Of a stretch of DNA of 5,554 nt, positions 2,111-5,554 are shown piece after piece. The notes beneath the pieces are model-generated. The model was not told the origin of the DNA. It saw only the letters and a list, made by a program, of their open reading frames with translations, and made no database searches. This DNA comes from a virus (Duplodnaviria; Heunggongvirae; Uroviricota; Caudoviricetes), in IMG/VR virus record IMGVR_UViG_3300029033_000047, positions 1 through 5,554 of that record; one strand, written 5' to 3'. Position 1 is the first letter of the stretch, and each line of letters begins with the position of its first letter. The position numbers were made by a program, and so were the translations under genes.

Positions 2111-2437
2111 TCATAACACCGTCGGACAACGCAAATCGTAAATCAGCACGGACACAGAAAACGGCAGTTCCCCCTGCACGAGGTCTTCCCGCTCAGCAAG
2201 ATCCGGATTCCGGTACAACATCCCGGTCAGGCGCATGGCAGCCCCCTTCATCCGGGTTAATGCCTCGCCCGGGATCAGTTCACCGTCCTCACGGATTACC
2301 TTATCCCGGCTGCCCTGAATGTAGGCCAGCAGCACAGCTGTAGCCTGACGAACCTTGTCCATCAGCATCTCATCATCCGCGTCATGGTCAACACGCAGAT
2401 GAGCCTTGATTTCTTCCAGTGTCAGTAATGCTGTCAC
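2111..2437 (-). CDS. gp6-like head-tail connector protein
   Basis: 108-aa ORF starting with GTG in a GTGA overlap with the upstream gene stop, with an AGGAGGTG RBS 4 nt upstream. The N-terminus MTALLTLEEIKAHLRVDHDADDEML matches the characteristic ...LTLEE.K.HLR.D.DDED... start of the gp6-like connector family. Confidence 0.8.
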   Translation of the reverse strand: MTALLTLEEIKAHLRVDHDADDEMLMDKVRQATAVLLAYIQGSRDKVIREDGELIPGEALTRMKGAAMRLTGMLYRNPDLAEREDLVQGELPFSVSVLIYDLRCPTVL

Positions 2438-3333
2438 TTTCCACCTCCTGCATCCCGCCCACGTTTTGCAGCCAGGGTCCAGGCTGATGAATGAGCTTCT
2501 CCGGGTTTATCTTCGGTCATACTGTTGCAGTGCCACAGCGAGCCCCCCCACGTCACCGTATCGCCGGGGTGGTAGGTTTCACCGGCTCTGAACACACCGC
2601 GGTAGAGCATCACCGGAAGGGAAAATGTTTTTTCCGTACGCTGGCCACTGCTCTGCCGGACCACCACAGAGAACAACCGTTCACCCGTCATGCTGACGTC
2701 AATATCCGCCACCCCGTCAACCAGGCATTCCCATCCCCGCATCCCGTGCGTTTTTTCATACGCCCGCCAGAGTCCGCCCTGGTGTGTGGCATACGTGCCC
2801 CGGGGAAAGGATTTTTGATCGTCAATGGCAGGGAGTATTTCCAGTGCCGTGGCATCACGCCCGTCCTGCGGAGCCGGCAGGGCATTCACCGCCTCCAGAA
2901 CCGCCTTCCGCAGTACTTCCGGATCGTAATCACGACCATCACGCGGAGCAGGGATATGACTTACGGCCTCTTTCACCATCTGCTCAAGCATCGGACGCAC
3001 ATCATCCGGGGTAATACTTTTGCCGTCCGCCGGTACAGGAATATTTGCGACCGCATCATTCACCGCCTGCTGCAGTACATCCGGATCATAATCACGACCA
3101 TCACGCGGTACCGGAATGGCCCCCACAGCCTCATCCACCATCGCCTGCAGAACCGGACGCACCTCATCCACCGTCACATGCTTCTGTAATACCGCCGACA
3201 GGGAAATCAGTTTCTCTTCAAACGCTTGTGCCTGCGAGGCCATCTTCCCCTCAAATGTGCGCTGTAAATCCGCCAGCACTGTGGAGAATTCTTCACCCAG
3301 CGCACGGATAATGGACAGTTCACGTTCATTCAT
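2434..3333 (-). CDS. Repeat-containing phage structural-module protein of unknown function (299 aa)
   Basis: ATG start in an ATGA overlap with the portal stop. Three parts: an N-terminal ~50 aa helical/coiled-coil-like segment; two 54-aa tandem repeats (aa ~53-160), each made of two ~27-aa half-repeats ending in IP-x-P-x-DG-(R/K)-D; and a C-terminal ~130-aa Trp/Gly-rich domain with two copies of a G-x-[YT]-x-T-x-x-GG-[LS]-LW motif (GTYATHQGGLWRA and GDTVTWGGSLWHC). It is not recognisable as a prohead protease or a major capsid protein. Confidence 0.8.
   Translation of the reverse strand: MNERELSIIRALGEEFSTVLADLQRTFEGKMASQAQAFEEKLISLSAVLQKHVTVDEVRPVLQAMVDEAVGAIPVPRDGRDYDPDVLQQAVNDAVANIPVPADGKSITPDDVRPMLEQMVKEAVSHIPAPRDGRDYDPEVLRKAVLEAVNALPAPQDGRDATALEILPAIDDQKSFPRGTYATHQGGLWRAYEKTHGMRGWECLVDGVADIDVSMTGERLFSVVVRQSSGQRTEKTFSLPVMLYRGVFRAGETYHPGDTVTWGGSLWHCNSMTEDKPGEAHSSAWTLAAKRGRDAGGGK
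2855..3180 (-). repeat. In-frame tandem coding repeat (2 x ~162 bp) inside the 299-aa gene
   Basis: A 36-bp core at 2911..2946 and 3073..3108 is identical except for 2 synonymous-type mismatches; both copies encode PRDGRDYDP(D/E)VL. Flanking sequence is more diverged but still related (e.g. ccggacgcac(a/c)tcatcc at ~2991 and ~3153). Confidence 0.75.
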
Positions 3334-4694
3334 TTTCGCAGTATCCCCCTGAACATCGCCTTCACCGCATCACGCTCTGTTTCGCTTATGGCCTTATTAC
3401 CGTCAGACGCGCCCTCCTGGCGTGTGCCTGACGACGTTTTCCCGGAAGACGCGAACGGATCTTCACGGGCATCACGGCGGGACAACGCTTCCAGACTGTA
3501 GTTCTGCTGCTGAAGATACAGTGCATCGCCTCCTGCCAGGGGCGGCAGGTTCTCCCGTTTACGGGCTTCATTGGGCGTGAGAAGCGTATTTTTCACCGCA
3601 TCCCCCAGCGTTTTCATGCGCCGCTCACTGTCCATTCTCAGCAGCGTGGTGACATCAAATTCCGTACTCTCGTTTTCCCCCGTTTCCAGCGCCTCATCCA
3701 GTAACAGCTCAATGGACTCAATCAGTGTCTGCAGGCACTGGGAATAATACTGCTGCTCCAGCGCCTCCACGTTGTCACTGGAAGGCGGTTGTCCCACGCC
3801 AATCTTGTAGGCCGGGACACGGAACACCGAACAGACAATTTCAGCGGTCATCTTCAGTTGTTCCACCGTCTGCGCATCCACCGGTGAAAACGTCGTGGGG
3901 TTGTATTTTGCCCCGTTGCTCAGAATGGCCGTTTTCCCCGCATTTTCGCCTGTATACCCGCTGTCCCAGTTGCTCTTCAGTTTTTTCGCATTTTCTTCCG
4001 TAATACTGCCGGGGATCTCAATCACCCCGGACGGCCTGCCGCCATTTCTGAAAAAATACGTCGAATTTTCCTGAATATGATGCCCCTGCGTGGCGGCCAG
4101 CCCGGCGGCATACACCGGCGGCAACCCTATAAGCGGATGAAAAAAACAGTTAAACCGGTCGTGGATCACTTCCCGGGCAGGCACCGTCACCGCCTCAGTG
4201 ATCCCGCAGTTCCGGTCCGGCGTGATGCGGTAGAACACTTCGCCGTCATCCGCCACCAGTGGTTCAACCCGGCTCCAGTCCAGAATGCGCAGTTCTTTGA
4301 TCTGCCCCCGGGCGTTACGGATTTTCAGCACCACCGTATTGCCGTGACGTAGTTTGGCGTTCAGCCACAGTTCAAAAAACTGGATACGGTTCTGCTGGGC
4401 GTTGGGACGACGACAGAGGCAGGCAATATCCCCCCGGCGCGTTTCCCTGCGTATCCCATGCGCATCCGTCTGCATAAGACGTAGCCGCATTTTGGCGATA
4501 TCCTGGGATATCAGCGAAATACATGCAAACACCGCATGAAAGGAGAGGACGGCTTCAGGATCGGCTTTCACGCCCTGCTGCCAGGCACCGGAAAAGGGCT
4601 CAGCCACCGCCTGAAACAGGCTGGTCCAGCCCGCCTCTCTTACGTCACGTCCTGATTTCTGGTTTTTTCGGGTTCGCCGTAAAAGGTTCCACAT
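3330..4694 (-). CDS. Phage portal protein, HK97 family
   Basis: 454-aa ORF with ATG start, an in-frame stop 6 codons upstream, and GGAG ~8 nt upstream. The central region ...FFRNGGRPSGVIEIPG...NWDSGYTGENAGKTAILSNGAKYNPTTFSPVDAQTVEQLKMTAEIVCSVFRVPAYKIGVG... matches the conserved core of HK97-type portal proteins (NAGK...G.KY...S..DAQ..E.....EI...F.VP...G). The C-terminal ~70 aa are charged and low-complexity. Confidence 0.9.
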   Translation of the reverse strand: MWNLLRRTRKNQKSGRDVREAGWTSLFQAVAEPFSGAWQQGVKADPEAVLSFHAVFACISLISQDIAKMRLRLMQTDAHGIRRETRRGDIACLCRRPNAQQNRIQFFELWLNAKLRHGNTVVLKIRNARGQIKELRILDWSRVEPLVADDGEVFYRITPDRNCGITEAVTVPAREVIHDRFNCFFHPLIGLPPVYAAGLAATQGHHIQENSTYFFRNGGRPSGVIEIPGSITEENAKKLKSNWDSGYTGENAGKTAILSNGAKYNPTTFSPVDAQTVEQLKMTAEIVCSVFRVPAYKIGVGQPPSSDNVEALEQQYYSQCLQTLIESIELLLDEALETGENESTEFDVTTLLRMDSERRMKTLGDAVKNTLLTPNEARKRENLPPLAGGDALYLQQQNYSLEALSRRDAREDPFASSGKTSSGTRQEGASDGNKAISETERDAVKAMFRGILRK

Positions 4695-4861
4695 TCGCCA
4701 TGCTCCGCATCACGTTTCTTTTTCTGACCTGCCGGACGTCGCACCGTGATGTACTCCGCCTTTCCCAGGCGAACCAGCACCTCCGCACACGGCTGTGCCA
4801 CATCACGGATATCCCCGACCCGGGCATCATGCGTACCATGCAGATATCGGATCTTTGCCAT
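4640..4861 (-). CDS. Hypothetical small protein (73 aa) between the capsid and portal genes
   Basis: ATG-initiated ORF with host-like codon choice (CTG, GCG, GAT, CGT, AAA), unlike the overlapping R/W/C-rich alternative frame. Its 3' end overlaps the portal start by 55 nt in another frame. There is no good RBS at canonical spacing unless the upstream hairpin brings AAGGAGGA closer. No recognisable family. Confidence 0.4.
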   Translation of the reverse strand: MAKIRYLHGTHDARVGDIRDVAQPCAEVLVRLGKAEYITVRRPAGQKKKRDAEHGECGTFYGEPEKTRNQDVT

Positions 4862-4870
4862 AACCTGTTA

Positions 4871-4898
4871 CGGGAGGCGCACACCTCCCGTCCTCCTT
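4871..4898 (-). promoter_or_regulatory. RBS-associated hairpin between the capsid stop and the next start codon
   Basis: Minus-strand RNA reads UGA-GUCUGAU-AAGGAGGA-[CGGGAGG-UGUGCG-CCUCCCG]-UAACAGGUU-AUG. There is a perfect 7-bp stem (plus 4871..4877 paired with 4884..4890) with a 6-nt loop. The 3' arm CCUCCC is anti-SD-like and the 5' arm contains GGGAGG. A strong SD (AAGGAGGA, plus 4891..4898) sits immediately 5' of the stem. Confidence 0.45.
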
Positions 4899-4905
4899 AT
4901 CAGAC

Positions 4906-5554
4906 TCAGCCGCCGGACGCACTGCCGTAGTTCACTCCGGTGATCACCGCCACCGCCGCGGTACGGCGACGACGCCAGTTGATCCAGCGCTCCGCACGGA
5001 TGGCCACGCTGCCTGTCTGGAACATGGAAACCAGCTCCACCGGCGACGGCGTGGTACTGTCGCCGGTCGGCTCAGACTGCATTTCCAGTGATGCCTCGCG
5101 GGACATATCCACTGCCACGCCGCCGTCATCCGCCAGATAAATATCCGGGGCATTCACCAGCACCAGCTGGTCACCCACGTACTGGGAGACAATCACCGGC
5201 AGCCCCTGGAAGGAGCCACCCAGCAGGGTCATGTCCGGGTATTCTTTCTGACCCAGCGCATTTTTACGCATGGACAGTGCCAGGGCATTGGTGCTGGACA
5301 TCAGCCAGACCGCACCGGTGGGCTGCAGGTTTGCTGCCACAAACTGACCAAACGCGGTCTCTGCATCCGCATCCGGGTTACCGGTTGATGCCATGCCCTT
5401 CACATCATGGGTGATGGACGCCGGGGAGACATCTGCCACTGCGGCTTTTTTCGGGTCCACAAAGTCCGTGTCCAGACGCGCCACCACCGCTTCCGCCAGC
5501 GCATTACGGACCAGTGCATCAGCAGCCGGACTGGAAAAACGGATCAATTCTTCC
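4906..5554 (-). CDS. Major capsid protein, HK97 fold, C-terminal ~216 codons (5' end lies beyond the window)
   Basis: The frame is open to the window edge; the track's start at 5547 is a TTG inside the ORF, not the true start. The C-terminus ...GLPVIVSQ...VAVDMSREAS...LVSMFQTGSVAIRAERWINWRRRRTAAVAVITGVNYG has the same architecture as the HK97 gp5 C-terminus (...GLPVV...VEVSRED...ILCEERLALAHYRPTAIIKGTF). Stop TGA at 4908..4906. Confidence 0.8.
   Translation of the reverse strand, partial: EELIRFSSPAADALVRNALAEAVVARLDTDFVDPKKAAVADVSPASITHDVKGMASTGNPDADAETAFGQFVAANLQPTGAVWLMSSTNALALSMRKNALGQKEYPDMTLLGGSFQGLPVIVSQYVGDQLVLVNAPDIYLADDGGVAVDMSREASLEMQSEPTGDSTTPSPVELVSMFQTGSVAIRAERWINWRRRRTAAVAVITGVNYGSASGG

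Follow-up and report, generated by a model that had tools for sequence, protein, structure and literature searches.

The window analysed here, the full 5,554 nucleotides (nt) of a caudoviricete virus record (IMG/VR record IMGVR_UViG_3300029033_000047, positions 1 to 5,554), carries all of its long open reading frames (ORFs) on the minus strand, and its head genes run from the major capsid gene to the portal gene and from there towards the head-tail adaptor. Judged by its sequence, the window is a minus-strand late operon of a lambdoid Escherichia coli prophage of the BP-4795 / 2851 (Marienburgvirus / Pankowvirus) type, collinear with late modules of this type at 94-97% nucleotide identity over 5554 nt and broken only in a repeat array. 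With a probability of about 0.9, we consider that it represents a complete, single-copy head-and-neck operon of a lambdoid siphophage, that it follows a version of the HK97 plan that is stable and specific to its lineage, and that the gene order was inherited and does not stem from recent recombination. Inheritance of the order is argued from its retention in distant relatives and from alignments that remain unbroken across the gap between capsid and portal. The initial annotation had treated the order as an oddity, for which it proposed a genuinely different synteny, a mosaic junction or a second portal-like gene; the first of these explanations held, as all relatives share the order. Capsid-then-portal is in fact already known, having been annotated since the first O157 genomes, and the finding is ordinary because this order is standard for a very common and old phage lineage.

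The gene that runs off the end of the window (5554..4906, minus strand; stop codon TGA at 4908..4906) encodes a capsid C-terminus. On its own, the 215-residue fragment gives no Pfam match above threshold (21 bits); it matches PHROG 617, 'major head protein', with E=8e-72 over profile positions 431-626 of 626, and is 98% identical to residues 431-645 of a protein of 645 amino acids (aa) in E. coli CP55 (L001:1726-3663). In this full-length homologue, Peptidase_S78 (PF04586) is found at residues 48-152 (2e-8) and Phage_capsid (PF05065) at 386-635 (2e-14), the latter together with TIGR01554 (6e-22), and both capsid families are matched above their cut-offs (54.1 bits against 24.2 for PF05065 and 78.4 against 27.5 for TIGR01554), as expected of an HK97-fold capsid protein. 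The identification of 4906..5554 as the end of a major capsid protein, and the placement of that gene upstream of the portal, are thereby borne out by the profile searches and the gene map. The gene leaving the window is thus predicted to be a 645-aa fusion of a prohead protease, a linker and an HK97-fold major capsid protein. With such a fusion, protease and capsid are not missing from the module, both being encoded upstream of the portal; the earlier statement that no protease, scaffold or capsid lies between portal and connector is literally correct but misleading.

The full order of the module is TerS, TerL, the protease-capsid fusion, a small ORF, the portal, a repeat protein, a gp6-like adaptor, and the neck and tail genes. 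The canonical HK97/lambda order, with the portal between the terminase and the protease, scaffold and capsid genes, is found neither in the window nor in any of its relatives. Matches to the module at 90-99% identity occur in 93 phage records and, out of 5426 complete E. coli genomes, in 1251; a genome that carries the module has three copies at the median. Capsid precedes portal in every locus or record looked at further; the order is therefore normal for a prophage family that about one in four complete E. coli genomes carries. Nucleotide matches of 94-99% cross the capsid/portal gap unbroken in 23 phage records and in 442 E. coli genomes, the latter being the complete genomes with matches covering at least 80% of the window. 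The same order is annotated in E. coli CP55, Stx2_EH1910, Stx2_EH2246, Stx1_EH1995, BP-4795, 2851 and phi330, and it is recovered from called genes with Pfam labels in Pantoea and Klebsiella.

For other species, one genome per species was scanned with the portal, which gave 40 loci onto which the window proteins were mapped by tblastn. TerL, the capsid fusion, the portal and the repeat/CBM protein stand in this order in all of the loci with enough upstream flank (35/35), and a gp6-like gene comes next wherever tblastn detected one. The loci belong to Enterobacterales (Kosakonia, Pantoea, Phytobacter, Atlantibacter, Citrobacter, Erwinia, Enterobacter and Buttiauxella) and to Alphaproteobacteria (Rhizobium, Sinorhizobium, Brucella, Sphingomonas, Microvirga, Devosia and others), with 38-77% identity for the capsid fusion and 45-70% for the portal. 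Burkholderia phage vB_FUB47a likewise has TerS, TerL, protease, capsid, small ORF, portal and adaptor in the same order, and the gene order is shown to be conserved across three classes of Proteobacteria. That the module is functional is seen from phage phi330: this carrier of the module is plaque-forming, with an isometric head of 55 nm and a tail of 145 nm. A literature search for an explicit description of the gene order returned only a one-line remark in PMC2669165. Gene-order rules used for finding or judging phage head modules should admit the sequence 'terminase, protease-capsid, portal'.

The portal gene (4694..3330, minus strand) encodes a 454-aa, full-length HK97-family portal, as had been proposed, with matches well over the trusted cut-offs of PF04860 (E=3e-80; 270 bits against 39) and TIGR01537 portal_HK97 (E=3e-104; 348.8 bits against 112) and with PDB portal matches to 9lbn, 8cez and 6tba. 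The protein ends in ...MFRGILRK, and its stop codon is overlapped by the ATG of the next gene, which encodes a 299-aa repeat protein (3333..2434, minus strand). A G5 homopolymer (3345..3349, minus strand) lies 8 codons before the portal stop. One G separates two states of this junction: the window has G5 and split genes, and in relatives a G6 allele joins the portal in frame to the next gene. Such portal-repeat fusions are present among E. coli database proteins (P0023, P0020 and P0038, reading ...MFRGDTEKMTERELS...), with fused ORF lengths of 750-860 aa. Among 78 E. coli-type viral contigs in IMG/VR, 45 are G5-split and 33 G6-fused, and both states occur on the same local haplotypes (L046-L125); phages 2851 and phi330 are G6, and BP-4795 is G5.

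This polymorphism gives rise to the best-surviving alternative, in which the portal of the window would be a frameshift pseudogene, the real gene being a portal of ~750-860 aa that includes the 299-aa part and has lost one G, and the prophage would be head-defective. The label 'phage portal protein, frameshifted' given by the NCBI pipeline to a near-identical split locus speaks for it, as do the single 859-aa portal ORF of phage 2851, the fused allele in 33 of the 78 viral contigs, and the scoring of the Sakai Sp6, Sp9 and Sp12 portals as defective. We nevertheless regard it as unlikely, because the portal has its own stop codon in all 39 of 39 other-species loci, the stop overlapping the next start in 31 of them (as ATGA, TGATG or ATGAATGA), and because in Klebsiella, Pantoea and Kosakonia the repeat protein is predominantly a separate product of 245-405 aa. 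Moreover, the G tract is absent from most other genera, the -1 frame of Klebsiella is closed right before the ATG of the next gene, and phage BP-4795 has the split form. The separate portal stops, the general lack of the G tract, the closed Klebsiella frame and the split BP-4795 locus argue that separate genes with coupled translation represent the ancestral, normal condition and that the portal-repeat fusion is a derived E. coli allele. Conservation of the split form in other genera also makes the 'portal, frameshifted' label for the G5 form probably wrong, and this label feeds calls of prophage defectiveness. A programmed -1 frameshift, as in lambda G/GT, was considered for the junction and rejected, given that it has no X XXY YYZ heptamer, an unconserved G tract and the closed -1 frame of Klebsiella. 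As a separate observation, the Enterobacter bugandensis portal (L017 6001..7346) aligns in two frames with a switch near residue 86, which suggests a frameshift or a sequencing error.

Much less probable, and in practice refuted, is a mosaic junction, in which the gap at 4695..4905 would be the seam between a head region and a portal-to-tail region from two different phages. Lambdoid phages are generally mosaic, and conservation across genera is far lower in the neck and tail genes past gp6 than in the TerL-capsid-portal block. However, in every locus with enough flank the portal follows the capsid fusion as its neighbour, even in Alphaproteobacteria at 38-50% identity, and the Burkholderia phage has this order too; conservation extends to the small ORF in the gap; and the window aligns to five relatives with the gap unbroken, the sole break being located in the repeat array. 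A slimmer chance still attaches to the likewise rejected proposal of two portal-like genes, in which the 454-aa protein would have some unconventional role and the true portal would lie upstream of the capsid; nothing speaks for it but the unusual position. In annotated relatives TerL lies directly upstream of the capsid fusion, with a gap of just 63 nt, and the complete 49-kb genome of Stx2_EH2246 (LC567837) holds one terminase pair, one protease-capsid gene and one portal. The upstream content that the initial annotation had wished to see is thus supplied by the relatives, namely TerS, TerL, the protease and the capsid N-terminus with no second portal, and the 454-aa protein is predicted to be the only portal of the phage. 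Misassembly across 4695..4905 has no point in its support and a negligible probability, the junction recurring in the 442 complete E. coli genomes as well as in phages sequenced independently.

Compared with known systems, the window differs little from the Stx-converting lambdoid siphophages BP-4795 (Marienburgvirus), 2851 and phi330 (Pankowvirus) and from Sakai Sp6/9/10/12, to which it is 94-97% identical in nucleotides over its whole length, with identical gene order and 4-nt overlaps. The only differences are the number of repeat units (299 aa here, 353-461 aa there) and the G5/G6 state. The HK97 module (terminase, portal gp3, protease gp4, capsid gp5, adaptor gp6) has in common with the window the portal, S78 protease, HK97-fold capsid, gp6-like and gp10-like families, but the portal of the window follows the capsid instead of preceding the protease, protease and capsid form one polypeptide, and the small ORF and the repeat/CBM protein are encoded in addition. 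Burkholderia phage vB_FUB47a, with 39% identity to the fusion protein, is alike in gene order but has protease and capsid as separate genes and no repeat protein between portal and adaptor. NCBIfam NF045541, 'prohead protease/major capsid protein fusion protein', describes the same architecture, with an N-terminal protease and a capsid; at 54 bits against a cut-off of 525, the window fusion is to be classed as a different lineage of fusion and not as a member.

The 299-aa gene encodes an N-terminal long helix, two 54-aa repeat units and a C-terminal beta domain with a CBM5/12-like end. In an alignment of homologues, the N-terminal helix (MNERELS..GEEF) is conserved; short alternating helices follow, connected through IPxPxDG(R/K)D linkers (IPxPxDGxD in the repeats of the window), and a C-terminal domain of ~130 residues is strongly conserved. 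The homologues are stand-alone proteins of 245 to ~570 aa that change in length by steps of 54 aa: near-identical prophages (L046-L125) encode versions of 245, 299, 353, 407, 461 and 569 aa, and in Sphingomonas and Phytobacter (L008, L032) the ORFs reach 499-572 aa. In all repeat-bearing loci looked at, the gene lies directly downstream of the portal. Tandem Repeats Finder detected no tandem repeat in the DNA of the 299-aa gene, the repeats being visible at the protein level only. The Klebsiella homologues labelled 'gp6-like connector' were considered as fusions of repeat protein and adaptor, and this was rejected; they contain more repeats instead.

Pfam CBM_5_12 matches the C-terminus of the 299-aa protein at 22 bits, within a range of 22-26 bits overall, under the cut-off of 26.2. 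A monomer model generated with AlphaFold2 (AF2) has a mean predicted local distance difference test (pLDDT) score of 59, and its architecture agrees with the alignment. Since confidence in the model is low, its fold matches are only suggestive. Foldseek against viral models (BFVD) matched phage collagen-repeat/CBM fibre-like proteins, and in the PDB it aligned the final ~50 residues with chitin-binding domains (2d49 and 2rts, root-mean-square deviation ~2 Å; Serratia ChiB), with non-significant E-values of 0.04-0.2. A PDB sequence search with the protein gave no meaningful match, and no curated family or solved homologue was found that would assign it a function. Like the phage collagen-repeat/CBM5/12 fibre proteins, it combines extended repeats with a C-terminal domain of ~50 residues; unlike them, it has repeats of a helix plus PxPxDG and not of Gly-X-Y, a CBM_5_12 match below threshold, and a gene that adjoins the portal and not the tail-fibre genes.

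On these grounds, the 299-aa product is probably a fibre-like protein of the virion. That fused alleles are viable suggests a location physically close to the portal C-terminus, and our best guess is an attachment near the portal vertex, either on the outer side in the manner of a neck whisker or internally at the portal crown. A broader proposition can be formulated, which we hold to be speculative and rather doubtful: that the repeat protein, conserved across Proteobacteria, belongs to the virion, where it would sit at or near the portal vertex; that it is coupled to the portal in translation, differs in length and resembles a fibre whose end is chitin-binding-like; and that in E. coli a hypermutable G5/G6 tract switches its production between a free form and one joined covalently to the portal C-terminus, yielding two virion forms. 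A role as a 'ruler' for a prolate head was rejected, as phi330 has an isometric 55-nm head and similar phages differ widely in repeat number. The supplement of the phi330 paper contains virion mass-spectrometry maps for short-tailed phages only. As a widespread, portal-coupled phage protein, it is, together with the split/fused polymorphism, the only mildly interesting residue of the analysis.

Between capsid and portal, the gap (4695..4905) measures 211 nt and not the 212 bp first given, and it does hold the small ORF that had been described. This ORF (73 aa; 4861..4640, minus strand) overlaps the portal start by 55 nt, matches PHROG 829 (E=4e-38) and is annotated as a hypothetical protein in relatives. 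In Enterobacterales loci, tblastn finds it at the same position with 32-59% identity, mostly >50%. ORFs of PHROG 29995 occupy the position in most of the Alphaproteobacteria looked at, and a weak shared match to PHROG 2616 is the sole link between the PHROG 829 and PHROG 29995 groups; small ORFs of 58-114 aa are found between capsid and portal in Alphaproteobacteria and in the Burkholderia phage. Upstream of the small ORF, 16 nt after the capsid stop, a GC-rich stem-loop (CGGGAGG-UGUGCG-CCUCCCG; 4871..4890, minus strand) was recognised by folding, just preceded by a Shine-Dalgarno-like AAGGAGGA (4891..4898). A hairpin stands at the same place in 23/23 related loci that were folded, with differing stem sequences, and in Enterobacterales it lies between a GGAGG motif (5') and the small-ORF ATG (3'). 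Possible roles are mRNA stabilisation or attenuation, or it may form a structured region of translation initiation.

A mechanism consistent with this layout can be proposed. The 645-aa polypeptide would comprise the prohead protease, a scaffold-like linker and the major capsid protein, and would thereby supply protease, scaffold and shell subunits, so that nothing else would be needed between portal and adaptor. The portal and the genes that follow would be translated from the same late transcript by coupling via their 4-nt overlaps, while the post-capsid hairpin may help to make the capsid message more abundant or more stable than that of the low-copy portal and neck genes that follow it. Several points weigh against our interpretation. 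The N-terminal two thirds of the capsid gene lie outside the window, and the fusion is inferred from relatives at 98-99% identity; the hairpin of the window alone is unexceptional against shuffled sequences (z = -1.2). Late transcription in lambdoid phages is Q-antiterminated, which makes a terminator role of the hairpin doubtful. Finally, no experiment on cleavage of the fusion, product stoichiometry or the role of the hairpin was found for this module.

Downstream of the repeat protein, all on the minus strand, the operon continues with the gp6-like head-tail adaptor (Ad1; 2437..2111; PF05135, 1e-7; PHROG 40, 3e-30), whose GTG start codon overlaps the stop of the 299-aa gene, and with the head closure protein (Hc1; 2101..1751; PF05521, 6e-17; PHROG 25). 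These are followed by the HK97 gp10-like neck / tail completion protein (1754..1308; PF04883, 6e-10; PHROG 5), the gp17-like tail terminator / completion protein (1311..967; PF11367, 1e-7; PHROG 347), and the major tail tube protein with a C-terminal immunoglobulin (Ig)-like domain (900..184; PHROG 158, 7e-118; Pfam Ig_2, I-set and Phage_tail_2). The chaining by ATGA/GTGA overlaps is present as described, with 4-nt overlaps between portal and 299-aa gene (ATGA), between 299-aa gene and gp6-like gene (GTGA), between head closure and gp10-like genes, and between gp10-like and gp17-like genes. Rfam and tRNA scans of the whole window gave no match.

Some minor observations concern the neighbouring genes and the relatives. 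A terminator-like hairpin with a T run (CCCGC-CGCGT-GCGGG TTTTTT) is present at 923..937 (minus strand), between the gp17-like and major tail genes. In the phi330 record (L131, PV189401), which is Sanger-assembled, the gp10-like, major tail and repeat protein genes are split; they are intact in relatives, and the splits are probably sequence errors and not biology. In the otherwise collinear prophage of E. coli CP55, an ompC porin gene (L001 13063..14226) lies inside the tail module, flanked by a tail protein gene and a minor tail protein L gene.

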